From a virus, in IMG/VR virus record IMGVR_UViG_3300002461_000205, positions 1 to 43,075 of that record: 43,075 nucleotides of DNA. The stretch is one strand, 5' to 3'. The notes beneath the pieces were generated by a model, which was not told the origin of the DNA, did not search any database, and saw only the letters and a list, made by a program, of their open reading frames with translations. Shown here one piece after another: positions 1 to 43,075 of this stretch. The stretch's first letter is position 1. Every line of letters begins with the position of its first letter. The position numbers and the translations under genes are program-made.

Positions 1-94
1 ACGCTGGGAATGTGTTGACTGCGGCGCGTCGCACGATCGCGACCACAACGCAGCAAAGCTAATTCTGGCGTCGGGGCGGAATGTCGCCCTCCAG
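1..94. repeat. Terminal direct repeat, copy 1. Identical to 42982..43075, so the contig ends overlap and the genome is circular or circularly permuted (unique length 42,981 bp).
   Basis: Compared base by base: 'acgctgggaatgtgttgactgcggcgcgtcgcacgatcgcgaccacaacgcagcaaagctaattctggcgtcggggcggaatgtcgccctccag' occurs at both ends. An ORF continues in frame across the join. Confidence 0.95.
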
Positions 95-121
95 CAAACG
101 GAAGTACGCAAAGCCGCGTAG
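1..121 (+). CDS. tnpB: 3' end of the TnpB-like ORF (partial). It continues 42023..43075 across the circular junction; codon phase starts at base 2 and the stop TAG is at 119..121.
   Basis: Translation from base 2 gives RWECVDCGASHDRDHNAAKLILASGRNVALQQTEVRKAA*. This contains the second CxxC of the zinc finger and the RuvC-III-type 'DRDHNAA' motif. Confidence 0.9.
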   Translation, partial: RWECVDCGASHDRDHNAAKLILASGRNVALQQTEVRKAA

Positions 122-148
122 GACATTAAACAACCACGGGAATAGGAA

Positions 149-727
149 ATGGCGCGTAAGAAAACCAAGCAAGCAGAGGCACCGCAAGATCGGCGCTCTA
201 TAGACGCGCTCGCCGCATTACAGGCAGTACCAGTCGAGATAGAAAACCCTCACGATTTAGATAGAGGAAAGATCATTGTTCTTGCCTCTACCCGTGATGA
301 TATTTTGCGGAGGCTATTGGCCAGCAAGGGTATTGATGAGGCGCAATTCGCGGCAGGAAGGGCGTGGGAAGAGGATTGGCAGCGGGCTCAGTTGGGCCAC
401 ACATCTTCTGGAGGTCAGTGGCAAGAGCGAGTTCAATCCAGCGGCATCTCTGGAGAGATTATCACAGATGCTGTTAGGCGTGCAGTAAAAAATCTCGCAG
501 AGGCTGATAAAGAATTGGGCGTTCAGGGTTCAAATCTCGTTCGAGATATTTTAGGTAGGGGTTTAACGACACAAACGGTTGCGATAAAATATCTGAGTGC
601 TGCGACTGAGCGAAATACTTCGTACATTACGAAGCGCTTTGGCGAGTGCTTAGAGACATTGGTTGTTGTTTATCAGTTGGGGGGGGCGCGAAGTGAGCGA
701 GAAAATTCCGCTAGTTGGAGGTTCTAA
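149..727 (+). CDS. Hypothetical DNA-binding/regulatory protein (DUF6456-like from memory). Candidate late-gene regulator.
   Basis: 192-aa ORF with an ATG start. The segment 'ILRRLLASKGIDEAQFAAGRAWEEDWQRAQL' resembles DUF6456-type proteins, and the C-terminus ('GLTTQTVAIKYLS') looks like an HTH. It lies immediately upstream of the putative late promoter. Confidence 0.45.
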   Translation: MARKKTKQAEAPQDRRSIDALAALQAVPVEIENPHDLDRGKIIVLASTRDDILRRLLASKGIDEAQFAAGRAWEEDWQRAQLGHTSSGGQWQERVQSSGISGEIITDAVRRAVKNLAEADKELGVQGSNLVRDILGRGLTTQTVAIKYLSAATERNTSYITKRFGECLETLVVVYQLGGARSERENSASWRF

Positions 728-1936: not shown

Positions 1937-2230
1937 ATGGCAAATCCTAGAGGCCAGCAGCGCGATAAGCCGTTTAGAGACGCGCTTCGTATGGAAATGA
2001 AGTTGGCCGAGGACGGAATCCCGACGCCAGCACCGAAAGGATCGCTACGCTGGGCCGCCCGCCAGTTAATTGAACGCGCGGGCGAAGACACGCAAGCCGT
2101 TAAAGAGCTGGCCGATCGCTTGGACGGCAAGGTGCCCCAGGCGCTTGTTGGTGGCGACGAAGAAGACGGCCCGATCAAGCTGTTCACGAAAATAGAGCGG
2201 GTGATTATTGACCCAAAGCCTAAGGATTGA
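1937..2230 (+). CDS. Putative terminase small subunit.
   Basis: 97-aa ORF immediately upstream of, and overlapping, the large terminase. The charged 'ELADRLDGKVPQAL' segment is typical of small terminases from alphaproteobacterial phages (from memory). Confidence 0.55.
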   Translation: MANPRGQQRDKPFRDALRMEMKLAEDGIPTPAPKGSLRWAARQLIERAGEDTQAVKELADRLDGKVPQALVGGDEEDGPIKLFTKIERVIIDPKPKD

Positions 2231-3593
2231 AACGCCTAGGGCCTTTGTTCCGTTTCTCTACCCATCTCGCTACAAGGCGGCCCATGGCGGCCGTGGTGGC
2301 GGCAAGTCTCATCTGTTCGCCGAGTTACTTGTTGAGCGCTGCATACAACAATCTACTCGCGCGGTTTGTATTCGCGAGGTTCAGCTTTCGCTGAAAGAAT
2401 CTGTACGCCAGTTAATCGTGGACAAGATTGCGAAGTTTGGCGCACAACGAGATTTTGAGGTTCTGGAATCGGAAATCAGGTGTCCTCACGGCGGCCTGAT
2501 AATTTTCCGAGGAATGCAAAGCTATAACGCAGAGTCGATCAAGTCTCTAGAGGCTTACGACATTGCTTGGGTTGAAGAGGCGCAAACACTAAGCGAACGC
2601 TCGCTCAAGATGCTCCGTCCTACGATCCGCAAGCCTAACTCCGAAATCTGGTTTAGCTGGAACCCGCGACACGAATCCGACCCGGTTGATTTATTCTTTC
2701 GTGGGGCGTCTCCACCAAAGAACGCGGTCATTCAGCGGGTGGGTTGGCAGGATAATCCGTGGTTTCCGGATGTTCTCCGCGAGGAGATGGAACACGACCG
2801 CGCTAAAGATTCTGAGAGCGCCGCCCACGTATGGGATGGCGGCTACGAGATAATCTCTGAAGGCTCTTACTTCGGCGCGCTCATCGCGAAGGCTGAAAGC
2901 GATGGCCGTATTGGCCTATTCCCGTATGACCCGTCCATTGCAGTTAAAACTGCGTGGGACATTGGTATCGACGACTATACGGCAATCTGGTTTCTGCAAG
3001 AGAACCGCAGCCAGGTGCGGGTAATTGATTACTACGAGGCAAGCGGCATCGGTGCTGAGCAGATCGTAACCGAGGCGATGCCGGAACTACTGCGTAACGC
3101 GGATAAACGAACAGACGCGCTCAGGGCACTAACTCGCAAGCAATACAATTTTGCAGAACACTATCTGCCTCACGACGCGAAGGTCCGCGAATGGGGCGGG
3201 GGCGCGAAAGAGCGAGTACAGGCGCTAGCTGAAATCGGAATACCGTTAGGCAAGATGCGGGTTGGCGTGGCCGCCAATCCTGCCGACCGAATTGAAGCGG
3301 TCCGGCGTCTATTGCCGTTCGTTCAGTTTGATCGTGGGCCCATGCCGGGTGTCGGCGTCAATCTTGGCCTGAGCAGACTTAGAAAATACAGCAGGCGCTT
3401 CAATGAAAGCCTTGGGGTTTTCGTGGGGCCGAAGCACGACGAGAACTCCCACGGCTGCGACGCCTTCGGGGAGTTTGCAATCAACTGTCACCTATCAAAG
3501 CCGACCAAGACCGAAGTGCCAAGGCCTTCGCCATTGGACGACTATATCGAGATTGACCCAGATAATGATGACGACGAATGGAAATCCCTCTGA
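2208..3593 (+). CDS. terL: Terminase large subunit.
   Basis: 461 aa with Walker A 'AHGGRGGGKSH' and a Walker B-like 'YDIAWVEEAQ'. It has the PBSX/Terminase_3-type layout and is followed by the portal gene. Confidence 0.9.
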   Translation: MTQSLRIETPRAFVPFLYPSRYKAAHGGRGGGKSHLFAELLVERCIQQSTRAVCIREVQLSLKESVRQLIVDKIAKFGAQRDFEVLESEIRCPHGGLIIFRGMQSYNAESIKSLEAYDIAWVEEAQTLSERSLKMLRPTIRKPNSEIWFSWNPRHESDPVDLFFRGASPPKNAVIQRVGWQDNPWFPDVLREEMEHDRAKDSESAAHVWDGGYEIISEGSYFGALIAKAESDGRIGLFPYDPSIAVKTAWDIGIDDYTAIWFLQENRSQVRVIDYYEASGIGAEQIVTEAMPELLRNADKRTDALRALTRKQYNFAEHYLPHDAKVREWGGGAKERVQALAEIGIPLGKMRVGVAANPADRIEAVRRLLPFVQFDRGPMPGVGVNLGLSRLRKYSRRFNESLGVFVGPKHDENSHGCDAFGEFAINCHLSKPTKTEVPRPSPLDDYIEIDPDNDDDEWKSL

Positions 3594-5541
3594 GCAGCCG
3601 GTGAAGGTCGCCGCGCCAGAGGAATATCTGGACGTTGCTACCCTCAAGCGCCGCTTTATGGATTACCGTTCCAGCAAGCGCGAAGAAGTAGAAGAACAGC
3701 GCGAGGCTCGTCATTACTACCACGGCGATCAGTGGACGGATGCCCAGCGAAAGATTCTCAAGAAACGCAAGCAGCCTATCGTTACCTACAATGCAATCTC
3801 CAGAAAGATCGACGGCGTTGTCGGGCTGGTTGAGCGATTAAGGCAAGACCCGAAAGCATTTCCTCGCACCCCCGAACACCAGGAAGGCTCGGACATTGCT
3901 GGGGCCTCCCTTCGTTATGCCCTCGACTCCGCAGACTGGCCCGCGATTTCGTCTGAGTGTTCACGAACAGCAAGCATTAACGGCTTGGCCGGTGTTGAGT
4001 TTGATCTGGAGTCTGGCGACAACGGCGACAACGAACCCAAGCTGTTCGAGGTCGATCCAGACACGTTTTTCTACGATGCACGATCCTATAAGCACGACTT
4101 CAGCGATGCACGCGACCTTGGCGTGTCCAAGTGGACCGACCTTGACGTTGCGAAAGAAATGTTCCCCGACAGGGCGGATGAACTTGACGGGCTAATCAGT
4201 GGCGGCGGTGATCTTGACGGATATGCCCAGCAGGACCGCGAGCGCAAGTGGATTGATAGCGATAAGAAGCGCCTGTTCATCGTTGAGCATTGGTACATCA
4301 ACAAAGGTAAGTGGTGCTATTGCTTCTATACGTCCAACGTCACGTTGAAAGAGGGTGTCTCACCGTTTCTGGATGAGAAGAAGAAGTCCGTACACAAATA
4401 TGAAATGTTCTCTGCTGGCGTTGACCATGACGGGGATCGTTATGGCTTCGTTCGAAATCTAAAATCCGCGCAGGACGAAAAGAACCATCGTCGATCAAAG
4501 GCGCTGCACGGGCTAAACAGCCGCAGGATCATTGCGCGCAACGGCGCATTGGCAAGCCCCGAAAAGACCAGAGCAGAGGCAGCTCGTCCTGATGGAATTA
4601 TTCTCTGGGACGTAGAGAAGCCCGAGTTCGACGATCAGCGTCAGATGGCCGACATGACCGGCCAGATGGAGTTTGCAAAAGACGCCTCAACCGAGATTGA
4701 GAACTTCGGTCCTAACCCCGCGATTCTTGGTCAGGGCGTGGAGAATCAGTCCGGTCGCGCAATTCAGTTGCTGCAGCAGGCGGGCATTGCGGAGCTTGGG
4801 CCGTTCATTATTGCACTTAAGAACTGGAAGATGCGCGTTTATCGCCGTATGTGGAACATGATTCAGCAAAACTGGACTGCTGAGCGATGGATTCGAGTTA
4901 CCGATAACGACGGGCTTGCTCAGTTCATTCAGGTGAACGGGCTGACGGGACAAGAGGGCATTCCTCAAGTCATCAACAGCCTTGGCTCGCTTGATGTGGA
5001 TATTATTCTCGATGAAGGCCCGGATAATATAAATGCTCAACAGGACGCGCTTGATATTCTGATGCAGGGCTTGGGACAGAATGGTGTTCCGATCCCGCCG
5101 AAAATCCTGATTAAGCTCTCCCAACTTCCTGGCGATGTGAAGAAGGAAGTTCTAGACGAGTTCGAGCAGGCTGGACAAAAGCCCGATCCGAAAGTTGCTG
5201 AAGGTCAAGCCAAGCTGCAATTCGAGCAGGCCAAGGCTCAGCAAGACGCGCAAGTGCAAATGGCTACTGCTCAGGCCGAAATACAATTAGCCCAGCAGAA
5301 GGCGACGATTGATGCCGAGCAGGCGCAACAGAAAGCATTGCTTGACGCACAGATTGCCCGTCAAAAAGCACAAGATGAAATCGAACTGAAGCGCATGATC
5401 GCTCAGGCAGATATTGAACTGGAGCGCGAGAAAGCCGCCGCTCAGATTCAGATCGAACAAATGAAGGCCAATGCCGGCATCGCGATTAACCGCGAAACAG
5501 CACAGGCCAAGGTTGCTCAAGGTGCAACGCAGGAATCGTAG
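3565..5541 (+). CDS. Portal protein with a P22-like C-terminal coiled-coil barrel.
   Basis: ATG-ATG at 3565. The track start at 3403 is an in-frame extension lying inside terL. The motif 'REARHYYHGDQWT' is present, and the last ~100 aa are Q/A/E/K heptad-like ('QAKLQFEQAKAQQDAQVQMATAQAEIQLAQQKA'). The gene sits between terL and the scaffold gene. Confidence 0.8.
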   Translation: MMTTNGNPSEQPVKVAAPEEYLDVATLKRRFMDYRSSKREEVEEQREARHYYHGDQWTDAQRKILKKRKQPIVTYNAISRKIDGVVGLVERLRQDPKAFPRTPEHQEGSDIAGASLRYALDSADWPAISSECSRTASINGLAGVEFDLESGDNGDNEPKLFEVDPDTFFYDARSYKHDFSDARDLGVSKWTDLDVAKEMFPDRADELDGLISGGGDLDGYAQQDRERKWIDSDKKRLFIVEHWYINKGKWCYCFYTSNVTLKEGVSPFLDEKKKSVHKYEMFSAGVDHDGDRYGFVRNLKSAQDEKNHRRSKALHGLNSRRIIARNGALASPEKTRAEAARPDGIILWDVEKPEFDDQRQMADMTGQMEFAKDASTEIENFGPNPAILGQGVENQSGRAIQLLQQAGIAELGPFIIALKNWKMRVYRRMWNMIQQNWTAERWIRVTDNDGLAQFIQVNGLTGQEGIPQVINSLGSLDVDIILDEGPDNINAQQDALDILMQGLGQNGVPIPPKILIKLSQLPGDVKKEVLDEFEQAGQKPDPKVAEGQAKLQFEQAKAQQDAQVQMATAQAEIQLAQQKATIDAEQAQQKALLDAQIARQKAQDEIELKRMIAQADIELEREKAAAQIQIEQMKANAGIAINRETAQAKVAQGATQES

Positions 5542-29755: not shown

Positions 29756-30118
29756 TTATTCGTACCTTGCTGGAACGATTTCACCGTTGAACTTGCGGTA
29801 GCCCATCTTTCGCTTCTTCGATTTGATCCCTAGGTGATTTAACCGGCGCTCGTAGATCGCGCTTTTCTCAGCAACGTCCTCTGCGGTCTTTTGCTTGTGG
29901 TGTTTGGCCAGCAATGTTCTGAGGTTTTTTTCACGGTTCTCTCCACCATTAGCGATTGCGACCGTGTGATCTGTTTCCCACTTGTCACCAACGCGGATCA
30001 GTGTCGTACAACCGCACTGGCATCTGCCGCCGTCCCGATCGAATACGCGCAAGCGAACGCGAGGAGGGATTTGCGTGTCAGGGCTTGCGCCGCGCCATTC
30101 AACCACGCTCCTAGCCAT
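29756..30118 (-). CDS. HNH endonuclease.
   Basis: 'GGRCQCGC...WETDHTVAIANGGENREKNLRTLLAKHHKQKT' is a classical HNH motif with a Cys-rich finger. Start probably at ATG 30118 (MARSVVEW). Confidence 0.8.
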   Translation of the reverse strand: MARSVVEWRGASPDTQIPPRVRLRVFDRDGGRCQCGCTTLIRVGDKWETDHTVAIANGGENREKNLRTLLAKHHKQKTAEDVAEKSAIYERRLNHLGIKSKKRKMGYRKFNGEIVPARYE

Positions 30119-30698
30119 GTGAGATGGCCTCCGCATCGCTCTTGCCTGCGTCGAGTCGTCCAAGAATTGTTGCGTGCGGGATTCCAGTTATCACCGCCGC
30201 TTGAGCGACAGTGACCACCTCGCCGTGAACGCAAAGAAAACGATTGAATGAGCGGTTATTGTTCTGCTCTGCTGCCGTTGCCCATCGGCAATTGCCTGGC
30301 TCGTAATTTCCATTGCTGTCGATGCGATCTAACGAATGCGCTGGAGACGGCTTGCGACCTAGGTCGGAAATAAAGGCATCAAACGAGATCGCCCACGCAG
30401 CGCACATCGTGATCCCGCGTCCGCCATAAAGCGGGTACTTCCGGTTCTGTGGGTTGCGGCAGCGGCTGCGCGCATTATCCCACGCCTTGTATTCGGGAGT
30501 TCGCGACAGCCCGTGAGTTTTCTTGGCTCCCTTAACGCATCCGCACGCGACAGAGTCGCCTCTTTTTAGGTGGCCTGCATACTTGGTTGTCTTATTTCCA
30601 CAATCACAGATACACACCCAATAGAACCCGCGCCGTCCGTCGACGCGCACTTCGCGAACGAGGGTTAAGCGATTTATTTTCATCCCAGCGTACAACAT
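30111..30698 (-). CDS. HNH_3-like protein with a degenerate 'DRID' motif and an N-terminal Cys cluster.
   Basis: 'YWVCICDCG...VACGC' is followed by 'YGGRGITMCAAWAISFDAFISDLGRKPSPAHSLDRIDSNGNYEPGNCRWATAAEQNNN'. The ATG at 30698 overlaps the upstream TAA. A paralog is at 41351..41770. Confidence 0.55.
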   Translation of the reverse strand: MLYAGMKINRLTLVREVRVDGRRGFYWVCICDCGNKTTKYAGHLKRGDSVACGCVKGAKKTHGLSRTPEYKAWDNARSRCRNPQNRKYPLYGGRGITMCAAWAISFDAFISDLGRKPSPAHSLDRIDSNGNYEPGNCRWATAAEQNNNRSFNRFLCVHGEVVTVAQAAVITGIPHATILGRLDAGKSDAEAISHG

Positions 30699-31033
30699 TA
30701 GCGAACGCGCTCCGCAGCTCTGGCGTTGGCGTTTGTCGATCGCCACACCTCAATTATCATTTCAGCGGCGCGAACCCGTGCGCGGTGCCGCTCATGCTCA
30801 AATATCGCCTCAGATTCCGCGTCTTGCAGTTTCTTGTAGAGGTCGTGGCATTCAACGCTTGCTTCTCGATCCCTGACGGTGCCGCCGTTTGTGCCGCGAT
30901 ACAGCTCCGCAAACTTCGCCTTGCGCGCGTTCTCCGCGTCCGTGACCGCCTTACGGGCAACGGCCACGGGGTGAGGATCGTCCGCGAGGTATGCGAGCGC
31001 TTTAGAAACCGTATCGTCGGCAACAATGCTCAT
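30698..31033 (-). CDS. Hypothetical helical protein.
   Basis: 111-aa ORF, coupled at both ends. Confidence 0.5.
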   Translation of the reverse strand: MSIVADDTVSKALAYLADDPHPVAVARKAVTDAENARKAKFAELYRGTNGGTVRDREASVECHDLYKKLQDAESEAIFEHERHRARVRAAEMIIEVWRSTNANARAAERVR

Positions 31034-34028: not shown

Positions 34029-34940
34029 TTACGCGGCCTCCAGCGGAGCAAGTTCGAGCCACTTTGCTCCCGGTACTTTCATGTCGATCAGGATTTGCAC
34101 GACGCCTTCGGCAAAATCCGATAGGATTTTGTCGCGAGCCGCAGCCGCAGCCGCATCCGCAGCCGCATCCGCATACGCAGCCGCATCCGCAGCCGCATAC
34201 GCAGCCGCATCCGCAGCCGCATACGCAGCCGCATACGCATCCGCATACGCAGCCGCATCCGCATACGCAGCCGCATCCGCATACGCAGCCGCATACGCAT
34301 CCGCAGCCGCATACGCAGCCGCATCCGCAGCCGCATACGCAGCCGCATACGCAGCCGCATACGCAGCCGCATCCGCATACGCAGCCGCATCCGCAGCCGC
34401 AGCCGCATACGCAGCCGCATCCGCATACGCAGCCGCATCCGCAGCCGCAGCCGCATACGCAGCGTTTGCTACTTTTCGTGCCGCCAATGCGGCTTCGCGC
34501 GTTCCCTCTTTCTCGCAACGGTTGGCCGCTTCGCAAAGAGCGGCCTTGTGCTTTTCATCTTTCTGACAAGATGCTGCTGCACGAAGGGCGATAGGAACTG
34601 CCGTGGTAATCGAGAGTTTTGCTACGCGCTTTGCAAATTCGGTATCGTCAAGAGTGTCGCGCGACCCGAGTTGGATAAGGGCAAGACGGCGCAAACCTTT
34701 TGCTCGCGCTGCATCGCTTGACCAGCGAGAATCGTTCAGACGGATTTTTAGTTTGCGAAGGGCGCGTGAGACACATTGCGGGTCGTCGCCATGCGGAAGA
34801 CCGAGCGCGTAACAAACCGCCGCTTCAACACACATAAATCCCGGCTTAGGCTTACCCGCGCCGCGAACTAGCCCCGCATCGACAACCGAAAGAACCTTTT
34901 CGGCAATTTCCTTGGTGATCTCTTGCTGTCCGCTCGTCAT
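34029..34940 (-). CDS. Ala-(Ala/Tyr/Asp) repeat protein; first gene of the leftward early operon.
   Basis: ATG at 34940 with an AGGAGAGAA RBS. The N-terminal domain ('GFMCVEAAVCYALGLPHGDDPQCV...LNDSRWSS') is followed by 109 residues made only of A, Y and D, then a short C-terminal domain. Confidence 0.7.
   Translation of the reverse strand: MTSGQQEITKEIAEKVLSVVDAGLVRGAGKPKPGFMCVEAAVCYALGLPHGDDPQCVSRALRKLKIRLNDSRWSSDAARAKGLRRLALIQLGSRDTLDDTEFAKRVAKLSITTAVPIALRAAASCQKDEKHKAALCEAANRCEKEGTREAALAARKVANAAYAAAAADAAAYADAAAYAAAAADAAAYADAAAYAAAYAAAYAAADAAAYAAADAYAAAYADAAAYADAAAYADAYAAAYAAADAAAYAAADAAAYADAAADAAAAAARDKILSDFAEGVVQILIDMKVPGAKWLELAPLEAA
34137..34463. repeat. Hexanucleotide tandem array built from GCAGCC, GCATCC and GCATAC (on the + strand).
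   Basis: Read directly from the sequence. About 327 bp. All six frames are open here, which explains the cluster of overlapping track ORFs. Confidence 0.95.
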
Positions 34941-34972
34941 TCGTTCTCTCCTAATCTTGTAGGAGGAGACTA

Positions 34973-35020
34973 ATCCAGAAAACTTGGATAGGTCAAGCAC
35001 GAAATCCAACAAAGATGGAT
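34973..35020. promoter_or_regulatory. Two ATCCA-N7-TGGAT palindromes (34973-89 and 35004-20): candidate left operators overlapping the leftward early promoter.
   Basis: 'ATCCAgaaaactTGGAT' and 'ATCCAacaaagaTGGAT', with centres 31 bp apart. A TTGACC -35-like element on the minus strand lies between them. They sit immediately upstream of the first leftward gene. Confidence 0.6.
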
Positions 35021-40458: not shown

Positions 40459-41354
40459 TGGCGCGTATTCGCTCGATCAAGCCGCACTTCTTCCGCCACG
40501 AAGGACTGTACGAGTCCGAGCGGGAAACGGGTCTGCCGTTGCGATTAGCCTTTGCCGGCCTCTGGACCGCCGCAGATCGCGAGGGCCGCTTCATCTGGTC
40601 CGCGCGCAACCTAAAACTCGATGCGTTGCCTTATGACGATGATGTGGACTTCGCACGCGTGCTTGACGCGTTGTGGTCGCGTGGCTCGATCAAGAAGTAC
40701 GTGGTCGATGGCAAGGAATACGGCTTCATCCCAAGCTGGCTAGATCATCAAGTCATCAACAACCGCGAAGCACCCTCTAACCTCCCAGAACCCAATGAAA
40801 CCAATACGTTGACGCGTGAGGCACGCGACGATGACGCGTCGGTCACGCCACTTAAGTCTGCACAAGCGGAAGGGAAGGGAAGGGAAGGGGAAAGGAAGGG
40901 AACGGATAAAGGAACGCGTGACGCGCGTTCGTCCGAGGTTTTGTTTGAAGACTTCTGGAGGGCCTATCCGAAACGCAAGGGCGCAAACCCGAGAAAGACC
41001 GCTCTGGCGGCTTTCCTGAAGGCGCTAAAGGTCGGAGAAGACCCGCAAGCGATCATTGCCGGCGCGAAGCGATGCGCCGTGGCGGAATCTGAAAACATCA
41101 ACACCAAATATATCCCGCAGGCGGTCAAATGGCTGCACGACGAGCGCTGGAAAGATTACAACGCTGCCGCGATAGCCAGCCTTCCATCGCGGGAAGAGCA
41201 GGAAAGGGCGTGGCGCTTTGCCTTGGATTACAAGGAACGCAAGGGCTTCTGGGATTTACGATCGCCAGAGCCAGGGTCACGCGACTGTAAAATCCCCCCG
41301 GAATTTATTGAGCAATGGAAAGCCGAGCGCGCGAAGCAAGGAGCCACTCCATGA
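40458..41354 (+). CDS. Putative replication initiation/replisome organiser protein.
   Basis: '[17 protein letters not shown]...[17 protein letters not shown]' and the C-terminal '[15 protein letters not shown]...[17 protein letters not shown]' are common in prophage replication-module proteins (from memory). Confidence 0.5.
40868..40902 (+). repeat. 35-nt uninterrupted polypurine tract with GGGAA repeats.
   Basis: 'ggaagggaagggaagggaaggggaaaggaagggaa', read directly from the sequence. It is flanked by ACGCG(T) motifs within 40811-40930. Confidence 0.9.
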
Positions 41355-41770
41355 GCGATCGTAAGCGAAAGCTCATGAAAATTCGATGGGTTGGTATGAA
41401 AGACCGTTGCTACAATCCAAATTCAATACGCTGGGCCTCCTACGGAGCCAGGGGCATCAAGGTCTGCGAGCGATGGAAAGACTCATTTGAAAACTTCTTA
41501 GCCGACATGGGCTTTGCGCCGGATGGCAAAAGTATTGATCGCATAGACAACAATGGCGATTACGAGCCGGGGAATGTCCGTTGGGTATCGCCAGCAGGGC
41601 AGGCCCGCAACCGCAGCAACACCAAATTAGACCCAGACAAGGTTTTGGCAATCCGCCGCCGCCTTCGAGAAACTACTAACAAAACGCAGATCGCGAGGGA
41701 GTTTGGTGTGGGCCAAACGACCGTGACGAAGATCAGCAGGAATCTTACCTGGAAGGATATCCAGCCATGA
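41351..41770 (+). CDS. HNH_3-like 'DRID' protein with a C-terminal HTH. Paralog of 30111..30698.
   Basis: The ATG at 41351 overlaps the upstream TGA. '[57 protein letters not shown]' is followed by '[18 protein letters not shown]'. Confidence 0.6.
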
Positions 41771-41795: not shown

Positions 41796-42026
41796 ATGTT
41801 TGGCACTTATGGCGGCTGCGATATTCGATGCAGCGACTCAGCCTGTAGGCATGGCTGCAAGCGCTCTCAGATATTTGCGCCCGGAACCCATCCTCATCCC
41901 GGCGTAGCCCCCGGATATTTCCCTGATCAGCAATCTGTTGCGCTCAATCGTATCGCAGAAGCAATCGAGAAACTAGCAAAAGCTATTTCAACCCCACCCA
42001 ATGAACCGGAGGAGCGCGGTCGATGA
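41796..42026 (+). CDS. Hypothetical 76-aa protein with a Cys-rich N-terminus.
   Basis: GAGGAGG RBS. Sequence begins MFGTYGGCDIRCSDSACRHGCKR. Its stop overlaps the TnpB-like start (ATGA). Confidence 0.55.
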   Translation: MFGTYGGCDIRCSDSACRHGCKRSQIFAPGTHPHPGVAPGYFPDQQSVALNRIAEAIEKLAKAISTPPNEPEERGR

Positions 42027-43075
42027 GCGATTGCTACGTTACATATAAATTCCGTGTCAAGGATAGCAGTGCGAAGCGATGGCTGAAGCGCCATGCGATT
42101 GCGTGCAATCAGGTGTGGAATTTCTGTGTCGCCACGCAGCGCGAGGCGCAGAGGCGTTGGAATGGCGGTAAAACGGGCCGCTGGCCGTCCGCTTATGACC
42201 TTGGCCACCTTACCGCCGGATCGAGCGCAGAACTAGAAACGCTGGCCGACACGATAGAGCAGGTCTGCAAACAGTTCGTAGTTTCTAGAAACGCGCAAGG
42301 AAAGTGCCCGAAATTTCGCTCTAGCTTTGGCCGTAGACGCTCACTCGGCTGGGTGCCATTCCGATTTCAGAATGCGCGGGTTATGGGTGACGGCGTTAAA
42401 TATAGGGGCCGCGTTTATAAATTCTGGAAGTCGCGAGAGATCGTTGGTGAAATCAGGCGAGGAGCATTTGTTCAAGACGCACGCGGGCGTTGGTACGTTA
42501 CCTTCGTTTGCCGAGTTGAGGCGGTAGCGGGTCGCTCAACCAAAGAAGTCGGTATTGATTTGGGGCTCAAGTCTCTAGCCACCTGTAGTGATGGCGAAGA
42601 AATACCGGCTCTGCGCCTCTACCGCGCTCACGAGGCCGAGCTGGCCCGAGCCCAGAGAGCTAGAAATTATAAGCGCGTGCGTGCGATCAGCGCAAAGATA
42701 GCGAACGCCAGAGCGCACTACCTTCATAACGCCAGCACTAAGTTGGCGAATGAGAATAGTTTAATCGTCGTCGGCAATGTGAGCGCTTCCAGCCTTAAGC
42801 AAACGAGAATGGCAAAATCCGTCTCGGACGCCGGCTGGTCAATGTTCAGGAATATGCTGCGGTACAAATCTGCCAGGAGGCAGGCGGTATATATCGAAGC
42901 TGACGAACGATTTAGTTCCCAGACCTGTTCTGATTGCGGAAGCGTCAGCGGCCCGAAAGGACTGAAGGGTCTTGGAGTAAGACGCTGGGAATGTGTTGAC
43001 TGCGGCGCGTCGCACGATCGCGACCACAACGCAGCAAAGCTAATTCTGGCGTCGGGGCGGAATGTCGCCCTCCAG
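42023..43075 (+). CDS. tnpB: TnpB-like (IS200/IS605 OrfB family) RNA-guided nuclease homolog: the first 351 codons, continuing at 1..121 for 360 aa in total.
   Basis: Translated by hand with no stops. 'YKFRVKDSSAKRWLKRHAIACNQVWNFCV', RuvC-I 'EVGIDLGLKSLA', 'HNASTKLANENSLIVVGNVSASSLKQTRMAKSVSDAGWSMFRNMLRYK', and zinc finger 'SSQTCSDCG...RRWECVDCG'. It is absent from the ORF track because it has no stop inside the window. Confidence 0.9.
   Translation, partial: MSDCYVTYKFRVKDSSAKRWLKRHAIACNQVWNFCVATQREAQRRWNGGKTGRWPSAYDLGHLTAGSSAELETLADTIEQVCKQFVVSRNAQGKCPKFRSSFGRRRSLGWVPFRFQNARVMGDGVKYRGRVYKFWKSREIVGEIRRGAFVQDARGRWYVTFVCRVEAVAGRSTKEVGIDLGLKSLATCSDGEEIPALRLYRAHEAELARAQRARNYKRVRAISAKIANARAHYLHNASTKLANENSLIVVGNVSASSLKQTRMAKSVSDAGWSMFRNMLRYKSARRQAVYIEADERFSSQTCSDCGSVSGPKGLKGLGVRRWECVDCGASHDRDHNAAKLILASGRNVALQ
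42982..43075. repeat. Terminal direct repeat, copy 2 (identical to 1..94).
   Basis: Base-by-base identity with the window start. Confidence 0.95.

Follow-up and report, generated by a model that had tools for sequence, protein, structure and literature searches.

A tnpB gene spans the junction of a circular phage genome

The stretch of DNA analysed here (the window, 43,075 nucleotides from IMG/VR virus record IMGVR_UViG_3300002461_000205) represents a circle of 42,981 bp, with 94 nt repeated at the two ends of its linear form: when the sequence is compared within the window, positions 1..94 are identical to 42982..43075. An open reading frame, tnpB, starts at ATG 42023, runs off the linearised end at 43075 and is completed at 95..121, giving a product of 359 aa. 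The first-pass annotation, made from the sequence alone, had recognised that a TnpB-like gene with this start codon crosses the junction, but let it resume at position 2 instead of 95 and gave it 360 aa. As it also stated, the gene is missing from the program-made list of open reading frames because the frame runs off the window end and has no stop inside the window. The features of the locus are collected in Table 1.

Table 1. Features of the tnpB locus, in window coordinates
Feature	Position	Strand	Basis or remark
Upstream 76-codon ORF, gene status uncertain, where the left end would be	41796..42026	+	TGA overlaps the tnpB ATG
First 351 codons of tnpB, up to the end of the linear window	42023..43075	+	Translation; Pfam, NCBIfam, PDB sequence and Foldseek matches
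RuvC-I aspartate D179 in GIDLG	42557..42559	+	120/120 relatives; end of strand 175-180 (AF2 model)
Gly251, canonical RuvC-II glutamate column	42773..42775	+	Aligned with E278 of ISDra2 TnpB; Gly in 120/120 relatives
Glu295, putative relocated (alternative) RuvC-II glutamate, in A-D-E-R-F-S-S-Q-T-C	42905..42907	+	120/120 relatives; published rearrangement
C4 zinc finger C302/C305/C324/C327	42926..43003	+	Four Cys invariant in 40-sequence alignment A1
RuvC-III aspartate D334 in HDRDHNAA	43022..43024 (codon repeated at 41..43 in the overlap)	+	120/120 relatives; start of helix 333-349
tnpB coding sequence, last 8 codons and stop TAG 119-121	95..121	+	Terminal 94-nt identity, joined translation
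IS right end, 3' module of the omega-RNA scaffold	60..129 (equals 43041..43075 + 95..129)	+	Covariance model, 47 relatives
Predicted omega-RNA guide, ACAACCACGGGAATAG...	130..145	+	Inferred from the scaffold/flank boundary; just upstream of ATG 149
Phage gene downstream of tnpB; 192 aa, matches DUF6456 weakly	149..727	+	Conserved in related phages without tnpB

The gene has a strong Shine-Dalgarno sequence (GGAGGAG at 42008-42014), which lies inside the upstream ORF, and its start codon overlaps the stop of that ORF in an ATGA; both had been pointed out in the first-pass annotation and can be read directly in the sequence. The product of the upstream ORF is an ORFan that finds only itself among 5.8 billion proteins, and the frame has a weak codon and GC3 signal. 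We therefore rejected it as a conserved phage gene on the grounds of zero homologues, and any translational coupling would rest on an uncertain gene. On the other side of tnpB, the next gene follows 27 nt past the stop, as had been noted.

The tnpB product is a TnpB with the rearranged RuvC-II pattern

The product clearly belongs to the TnpBs, the RNA-guided endonucleases of the IS200/IS605 family. Comparison with profile models, which the first-pass annotation had proposed as a check, gives matches above the cut-offs for PF07282 (77.4 bits, 9.6e-22; cut-off 26.3), PF01385 (49.5 bits, 5.9e-13; cut-off 30.5) and the NCBIfam model guided_TnpB (NF040570; 201.9 bits; cut-off 100). The top PDB match by sequence is ISDra2 TnpB (phmmer, chain 8bf8, 2e-23), and the best Foldseek matches are ISDra2 TnpB (8h1j, 7e-20) and ISFba1 TnpB (4e-18). 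In the AF2 model (pLDDT 81.7) the protein has the TnpB fold, with WED/REC and a split RuvC domain carrying a zinc-finger insertion. All the hallmarks read from the letters at first pass, namely GIDLG, the CxxC...CxxC zinc finger and HDRDHNAA, are present, and C302 of the zinc finger is invariant in the 120-sequence alignment as well.

The same reader had remarked that the canonical RuvC-II glutamate is missing, and this is indeed the case. In the phmmer alignment to 8bf8 the ISDra2 motif 'iigtEhl' pairs with 'livvGNv', which places Gly251 at the canonical RuvC-II column. Of the D-E-D triad, D179 and D334 thus stand at their canonical positions while the glutamate column is occupied by glycine, and the triad is complete only when Glu295 is counted. 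To see how these residues behave in the family we used 120 relatives with 57-66% identity to the phage protein. Neither Gly251 nor Glu295 varies in this set, whereas the nearby E292 is conserved in only 106 of the 120. The two invariant residues are 44 positions apart, and in the AF2 model E295 directly follows strand 289-294, beside the strands of D179 and G251.

This arrangement corresponds to one already described. In rearranged TnpBs and in Fanzors an alternative glutamate is found about 45 residues away (PMC10530073; PMC10691335), and in RIIr-5 TnpBs the change of Glu to Gly is offset by an alternative, RuvX-like glutamate in beta-5 (PMC10691335). Sequence conservation and the structural model thus support a move of the catalytic glutamate from beta-4 (Gly251) to the end of beta-5 (Glu295), which was one of three hypotheses put forward at first pass and the one that fits the published spacing. 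TvTnpB, which is of the rearranged type, cleaves DNA in a TAM-specific manner, and the E467A mutant of ApmFNuc is inactive (PMC10530073). By likeness to such members, for which cleavage has been demonstrated, the phage TnpB would be an active nuclease.

The protein is undecayed and the gene intact. All 44 family-invariant residues and 98 of 100 near-invariant ones are kept; the two deviations compare with a family median of 1 and a maximum of 5.

The right end of an IS element overlaps the 3' end of tnpB

We built a covariance model of the family's right end, R1, from 47 relatives, leaving the window out. Its sole significant match in the phage scores 27.8 bits (E 2e-6), covers the model at full length with all three helices and ends exactly at 129. 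The module consists of a hairpin GGGCG/CGCCC, a mini-hairpin, a terminal hairpin TACGC-AAAGCC-GCGTA around the stop codon and the tail GGACATTAA, which is also the motif at which homology between loci ends. Compensatory changes are found in relatives at 16 of the 23 pairs of the structure. Relatives outside the training set score 22-91 bits, typically about 75, against 27.8 here, and their terminal hairpin has 7-8 bp against 5 bp in the phage; the low score and the short hairpin suggest that the omega-RNA of the phage copy may be impaired. A search of Rfam at the locus returned no described RNA family, the sole match being a chance snoRNA below threshold.

With the scaffold placed at 60..129, the predicted guide begins at 130. 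Nowhere else in the phage does a site match it with 3 mismatches or fewer, the fetched loci contain no meaningful match, and the exact 21 nt of guide plus start codon are absent from JGI metagenome contigs. Judging from the relatives, the TAM is probably TTCAT-like. The module also explains the 27-nt gap after the tnpB stop, because in this family the omega-RNA and right end reach into the 3' part of tnpB; such close spacing past the stop is usual for it.

The left end and the transposase are missing from the phage copy

The corresponding model of the left end, R2, detects about 60 relatives out of 87, with scores between 20 and 64 bits. Within the 2.5 kb upstream of tnpB in the window its best score is 7.9 bits. 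An inverted-repeat scan, a whole-window hairpin scan and nhmmer searches with full and half left-end profiles were likewise negative. A segment at 41869-41910 resembles the consensus by eye; we rejected it as a left end, since it scores 4.9 bits with the covariance model and E = 18 with half-profile nhmmer. The left end also goes undetected in the phage-borne relatives L001, L002, L005, L007, L009 and L108. In agreement with the first-pass annotation, no Y1_Tnp or resolvase catalytic domain was found by Pfam in the 30 plausible ORFs, and the Y1 TnpA of the family itself, compared by tblastn with all six frames of the complete window, gave no match. Without TnpA and a recognisable left end, and with a shortened right-end hairpin, the phage copy is probably immobile.

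The relatives, on the other hand, are bona fide mobile IS200/IS605 elements. Acinetobacter thermotolerans carries four near-identical copies in one genome, with exact ends and a divergent Y1 TnpA, and the TnpB of these copies has the same Gly/Glu pattern. TnpA lies directly upstream of the TnpB match in 16 of about 105 fetched loci. Many relatives consist of TnpB alone, and several of these sit at unrelated positions in other phages. The tnpB gene is frameshifted in 4 of 13 IMG/VR relatives, so decay is common in phages. An ordinary IS, according to the first-pass annotation, would be recognised by a compensating glutamate, TAM-associated ends and several identical copies. All of these are found at the level of the family; the phage copy has the right end and lacks the left end and a second copy. 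Neither a second copy nor a TAM-flanked empty site was found for the phage element, and its arrival as a complete IS is accordingly inferred from its relatives.

tnpB is absent from related phages

Homologues of the downstream 192-aa gene with 72-82% identity are found in the syntenic phages L099, L101, L102 and L105, all of which are without tnpB; in IMG/VR this gene has no relatives. DNA homology with the syntenic phages ends at about 41173 and restarts at about 200, and owing to this gap the boundaries of the insertion cannot be read. A search of GenBank for close phage relatives gave just short matches of 69-73% to unrelated phages, none of them over the tnpB region. The nearest tnpB relatives sit in unrelated gene contexts in other phages, and the 15 IMG/VR loci have no neighbours in common. 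A scan around tnpB found no promoter-like site, and the two terminator-like sites there are no more than expected by chance.

The description of tnpB as wired into a phage operon rather than being a discrete IS was therefore overstated: the short gap is explained by the omega-RNA, the relatives are real IS elements and related phages do without the gene.

A TnpB probably left behind by an IS element

Taken together, the locus is best explained, and we consider this likely, as a TnpB of the 'rearranged RuvC-II' type (TnpB2/RIIr, most like RIIr-5) left in a temperate P22-like phage by an IS200/IS605-type element. The gene would have entered the phage inside such an element, in a hypervariable, accessory slot between replication/regulatory and packaging genes. 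The 3' end of tnpB and the next 8 nt (60..129) encode the 3' part of the omega-RNA scaffold, which is at the same time the element's right end, and the flanking DNA from 130 would serve as guide. Judged by characterised TnpBs, the complex of protein and RNA would cleave DNA in which a TAM is followed by a flank matching the guide. It would thus attack versions of the locus without the element, and such cleavage would favour retention or homing of the element. The phage copy would transpose no longer and be transcribed by read-through with the adjacent phage genes.

The main rival explanation is a relic en route to loss, in which the left end and the TnpA-binding hairpins are gone, the omega-RNA is non-functional and the intact reading frame is a recent, inactive leftover. 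The undetectable left end, far below the scores of relatives, the R1 score near the family minimum with its shortened terminal hairpin and the relatives already frameshifted all fit it. However, the frame is full length behind a strong Shine-Dalgarno sequence, every invariant residue is kept with few deviations at near-invariant columns, and the RNA module still matches its model from end to end with three helices. We consider such a relic unlikely. The decaying remnant proposed at first pass is accordingly correct for the ends, which are decayed or lost, and incorrect for the protein. A domesticated, immobilised TnpB could instead benefit the phage, either as a fixed-guide nuclease aimed at a host locus or at competing and co-infecting phages, or as a homing drive independent of transposition. 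In favour of this, the protein and RNA module have been kept despite the lost left end; tnpB runs in the same direction as the phage genes and close up against them, no site around it looks like a promoter or, convincingly, like a terminator, and the six phage-borne relatives named above also have no detectable left end. But neutral decay predicts loss of the left end equally well, position and neighbours are conserved in no relative, the closest syntenic phages have no tnpB and the guide is unmatched elsewhere in the phage, in the fetched loci or, exactly, in the metagenome contigs. Domestication of this kind strikes us as improbable, and we would give similarly little credit to its most specific form, a catalytically competent TnpB of the relocated-glutamate type, transcribed by read-through with the phage's genes, that the phage keeps as a fixed-guide device for homing or exclusion, acting without a transposase on related phages with a TAM-flanked target. 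If the phage does benefit, this would amount to a simple domestication of a TnpB that was not inactivated; the data do not require such a reading.

The remaining first-pass hypothesis, a nuclease-dead RNA-guided transcriptional repressor analogous to the TldRs, draws on the absent canonical glutamate, the lack of TnpA and the location in a phage, as for fliC-associated TldRs (PMC10705468). Only one canonical position is changed, though: the compensating Glu295 is invariant, and the zinc finger is intact, as are the aspartates D179 and D334. No conserved partner gene is seen in the 15 IMG/VR loci, the closest relatives or the syntenic phages, the guide finds no second match within the phage, and the alternate-glutamate pattern is one that the TldR authors themselves set aside as a source of spurious 'inactive' calls (PMC10705468). 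We regard a repressor as very improbable. With the relocated Glu295 belonging to a described subtype, and with an IS origin, the locus is therefore an ordinary find and not a new nuclease-dead regulator. It carries a caution all the same, namely that a TnpB without a glutamate at the canonical RuvC-II column need not be nuclease-dead.

Comparison with known systems

ISDra2 TnpB (8bf8, 8h1j, 8exa) and the phage protein have in common the fold, the domain order, the DRDxN-type RuvC-III motif and the zinc finger, as well as an omega-RNA overlapping the gene's 3' end and the right end. Their identity is about 20-23% over the Foldseek alignments. ISDra2 TnpB has the catalytic E278 in 'IIGTEHL' where the phage protein has Gly251, and a proline ('SPYF') where the phage protein has Glu295 ('DERF').

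TldRs (Wiegand et al., PMC10705468) are alike in their origin from TnpB, in the carriage of some by temperate phages, in the lack of an adjacent transposase and in a fixed guide downstream. They have lost at least two DED residues and/or the C-terminal ZnF/RuvC, which the phage TnpB has not (PMC10705468). They also have a stably associated partner gene (fliC, oppF), which the phage gene does not, and their guides match a promoter; no such match is seen for the phage guide within the phage or the fetched loci.

Fanzors (ApmFNuc and the mimivirus Fanzor2, 9b0l) have arrived at the same relocated-glutamate solution. The 9b0l chain matches TnpB residues 260-344 (2e-5), and by an ungapped and hence approximate offset E295 falls at about residue 467 of the 9b0l chain, the number reported for the alternative glutamate of ApmFNuc (PMC10530073). 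However, Fanzors belong to eukaryotes and giant viruses, are larger, have other transposon partners and are only distantly similar to the phage TnpB in sequence.

The closest likeness is to the rearranged TnpBs described as TnpB2 (Jiang et al., Sci Adv 2023, PMC10530073) and as the RIIr clades, above all RIIr-5 (Altae-Tran et al., PNAS 2023, PMC10691335), with glycine in the canonical column and a glutamate 44 residues on at the end of beta-5, intact RuvC-I, RuvC-III and C4 zinc finger, mobile relatives associated with a Y1 TnpA and an omega-RNA at the gene's 3' end. Among the RIIr branches the residue pattern makes it look most like RIIr-5. The phage copy differs in having no left end and no TnpA, in its co-oriented place in a row of phage genes and in its short right-end hairpin. 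These differences match what seems to be the common course for such elements in phages: the cis-acting ends decay and the nuclease gene persists. The locus thereby adds a further phage-borne example to a large mobile clade with glycine at the column and an invariant glutamate some 44 residues on, the rearranged RuvC-II clade, whose rearrangement has already been described and for other members of which cleavage has been shown.

A phage-borne TnpB with a conserved alternative to the RuvC-II glutamate

The virus record represents a 42,981-bp circle whose two ends, as written, overlap by 94 nt (1 to 94 repeats 42982 to 43075), and tnpB runs across its junction. The first-pass annotation had the start codon and the crossing right, but the frame resumes at 95, not at 2, and the product has 359 amino acids rather than 360. 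It also noted correctly that the gene is missing from the ORF list, from which it was omitted because its frame runs off the window end, and that its start overlaps an upstream stop codon (ATGA) behind a ribosome-binding site. The TnpB hallmarks it named, GIDLG, the CxxC...CxxC zinc finger and HDRDHNAA, are all present.

Coordinates of features in the window and in fetched relative loci (L numbers)
Feature	Sequence	Position	Strand	Remark
tnpB	window	42023 to window end, then 95-121		ATG 42023; TAG 119-121
GGAGGAG ribosome-binding site	window	42008-42014		
76-codon ORF	window	41796-42026	+	overlaps tnpB start; occupies expected left-end place
Right-end model match	window	60-129		stops exactly at ...GGACATTAA
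Start codon of next gene	window	149		
Tail/RuvC-III repeat sites	window	~43019-43030 and 121-129		columns 73-75 and 170-172 of alignment A2
DNA homology of syntenic phages	window	ends ~41173, restarts ~200		
Paralogous ORF	window	30111-30746	-	
Paralogous ORF	window	41315-41770	+	just upstream of tnpB region; weak helix-turn-helix match
12-nt repeat	window	34139-34463		within ORF 34029-35012 (-)
Terminase large-subunit gene and longest portal ORF	window	2208-3593 and 3403-5541		~190-nt overlap
Left junctions (examples)	L027, L024	2866-2912, 2719-2765		
Left and right hairpins	L088	2491-2510 and 4040-4062		near-identical
Second, solitary right-end module	L107	1562-1636		78.7 bits; upstream of tnpB
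tnpB	L096			between coat and portal genes
tnpB (two genes)	L106	1111-2223 and 5001-6071		~2.8 kb apart; among replication and recombination genes
tnpB	L107			near lysis genes
tnpB	L108			beside integrase

The protein matches Pfam Cas12f1-like_TNB and OrfB_IS605 and scores double the cut-off of NCBIfam's 'guided_TnpB' model. ISDra2 TnpB is its best solved relative both by sequence (2e-23) and by fold (Foldseek 7e-20 to 8h1j, using an AF2 model with pLDDT 81.7). In the sequence alignment, E278 of ISDra2 ('iigtEhl') falls on Gly251 ('livvGNv'), so the canonical RuvC-II glutamate, reported missing by the first reading, is truly absent. There are more than 4,800 homologues; we aligned the best 120 (57-66% identity). 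D179, Gly251 and D334 are each found in 120/120, and so is Glu295, within the motif A-D-E-R-[WYF]-[TS]-S-Q-x-C; its neighbour E292, part of the 'YIE' pointed out earlier, is kept in just 106. Glu295 lies 44 residues beyond Gly251 and, in the AF2 model, comes right after strand 289-294, the strand following that of Gly251. The window TnpB carries a conserved alternative catalytic triad, and the proposal of a relocated catalytic glutamate was right: judged by sequence, the Gly251/Glu295 pattern is the published RuvC-II rearrangement and not an inactivation.

The right end and a predicted guide

In all relatives, DNA conservation extends past the stop codon as far as ...GA(C/T)GT(C/T)AA, 10-20 nt on, and beyond that the loci are unrelated. 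Two hairpins and a mini-hairpin form in the last ~75 nt, with compensatory changes at 16 of the 23 predicted pairs; the loop of the terminal hairpin holds the tnpB stop codon. Trained on 47 relatives, with the window excluded, a covariance model finds a full-length match in the window (27.8 bits, E ~2e-6), the sole significant match in the phage. A recognisable omega-RNA 3' module is present in the window. Its score lies close to the lower limit for the family (relatives outside the training set: 22-91 bits), and its terminal hairpin has 5 bp (TACGC/GCGTA) versus 7-8 bp.

Given the extent of this match, the omega-RNA scaffold, and with it the right end of the element, finishes at 129 and the predicted guide would start at 130 (ACAACCACGGGAATAG...), 19 nt before the ATG of the next gene. 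Searches for the guide gave no second match in the phage and no meaningful one in the fetched loci. The predicted target in the window is preceded by ...CATTAA, which differs from the family's predicted TAM, T-T-C-A-T(-C), and self-cleavage is therefore not expected. The tail GA(C/T)GT(C/T)AA recurs ~95 nt upstream, within the R-D-V-N codons of RuvC-III. RNAalifold pairs three bases between the two sites, with one-sided changes only, a faint hint of a possible interaction within the omega-RNA, long-range or as a pseudoknot.

Origin in a mobile insertion sequence

With one genome scanned per species, relatives numbered at least 591; most of the best 80 are from Proteobacteria. Acinetobacter thermotolerans carries four near-identical copies, and aligning them places the left end after the flank ...TTTAT, beginning CCCTTTAGCCG..., with the hairpin CCTCGCCC-TTCA-GGGCGGGG, and the right end at ...GGAGAGGATGTCAA, followed by flank. 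Besides a divergent 147-aa Y1 TnpA, the element encodes a TnpB that shares the Gly/Glu pattern. This insertion-sequence family is genuine and mobile, and the window tnpB originates in it. TnpA adjoins TnpB in 16 of ~105 fetched loci, the others being TnpB-only; none is encoded in any frame of the window, in agreement with the first-pass annotation. Of 41 relatives whose left end could be detected, 31 have TTCAT(C), the predicted TAM, just 5' of the element.

Left junctions were inspected in relatives L004-L106. Among 27 junctions with TTCAT(C), 24 have a CAT that serves, on the opposite strand, to start an ORF whose N-terminus is plausible and whose length is 50 codons or more, as against 45% of control CAT sites. 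On that strand the left-end terminus reads GGAGCAAATCTG-ATG, which puts a Shine-Dalgarno sequence 8 nt ahead of the neighbouring ATG. From this pattern, the family seems to sit exactly before divergent gene starts, replacing their ribosome-binding site. The subterminal hairpins of the two ends are near-identical in relatives such as L088 (left CCCCGTCC-TTCA-GGGCGGGG, right CCCCGTCC-TTTA-GGGCGGGG).

Erosion and phage context

Of 87 relatives, ~60 are detected by a left-end hairpin model, with scores of 20-64 bits; the model also picks up the similar right-end hairpin. Its best score in the 2.5 kb upstream of the window tnpB is 7.9 bits, and whole-window hairpin scans and nhmmer profiles were likewise negative. 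In a set of 5.8 billion proteins, the 76-codon ORF found there matches nothing but itself. It has unusual codon-position GC, and the codon score of its own frame does not exceed that of the other frames; any translational coupling to a phage gene thus hangs on an uncertain gene. The left end is also undetected in phage-borne relatives L001, L002, L005, L007, L009 and L108, and 4 of 13 IMG/VR copies are frameshifted, so erosion in phages is common. Without left end and TnpA, the window copy is probably immobile. The suggestion of a decaying IS remnant holds for the transposon ends, one missing and one weak, but not for the protein, which retains 44/44 residues invariant across the other 119 sequences and departs at 2 of 100 near-invariant columns, ordinary for the family.

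The window is a temperate P22-like phage with recognisable genes for a tyrosine integrase, TerL, a P22-type portal, two DNA methyltransferases, Rha and a DnaA-C-like protein. tnpB had been described as wired into a phage operon, partly on the short downstream gap; the gap (27 nt) was measured correctly, but it is a family trait. Phages whose downstream gene is 72-82% identical have the same gene order without tnpB, its slot being filled by different small ORFs. The closest TnpB relatives occupy other positions in other phages, and the window's neighbours are common to none of 15 IMG/VR loci. tnpB is therefore accessory, inserted into a slot that is hypervariable, and no conserved part of the operon. 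Around it we found no promoter-like sites and two terminator-like sites, at chance level, which fits weakly with read-through transcription.

Elsewhere in the phage, two paralogous ORFs have in common the motif (I/L)DRIDxNGxYEPGNxRW and may be homing-endonuclease-like accessory genes. About 27 repeats of a 12-nt unit (84% matches) account for a long low-complexity, Ala-rich stretch, (A-A-A-Y/D)n, in a minus-strand ORF. The 712-aa portal start is probably too early, given the overlap with the terminase gene and the later start in the ENA copy (658 aa).

Comparison with rearranged TnpBs and TldRs

By analogy with characterised TnpBs, the protein would bind RNA processed from its own transcript, with the flank from 130 as guide, and would cut where a copy of that flank adjoins a TAM, as it does in genomes without the element, favouring the element's own retention. 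The RuvC-II rearrangement being already published, residual novelty would lie in retention of an immobilised nuclease for the phage's benefit, which we regard as very improbable.

A TldR-like regulator, the nuclease-impaired RNA-guided DNA-binding protein also proposed at first, finds no support: the TldR study warns that proteins with an alternate glutamate are spuriously called 'inactive' and therefore demanded two or more DED mutations (PMC10705468), and the tests that define TldRs come out negative for the window protein. The likeness is to the rearranged TnpBs. In large clades, RIIr-5 being the largest, glycine replaces the RuvC-II glutamate and an alternative glutamate compensates, as in RuvX with its catalytic Glu in beta-5 (Altae-Tran et al., PMC10691335). 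Every TnpB or Fanzor without the canonical Glu is reported to carry a conserved one 'approximately 45 residues away'; the rearranged TvTnpB performs TAM-specific DNA cleavage, and ApmFNuc no longer cleaves once its alternative Glu is mutated (Jiang et al., PMC10530073). By the tests available, the window protein is a member of this group and, by analogy, would work like them.
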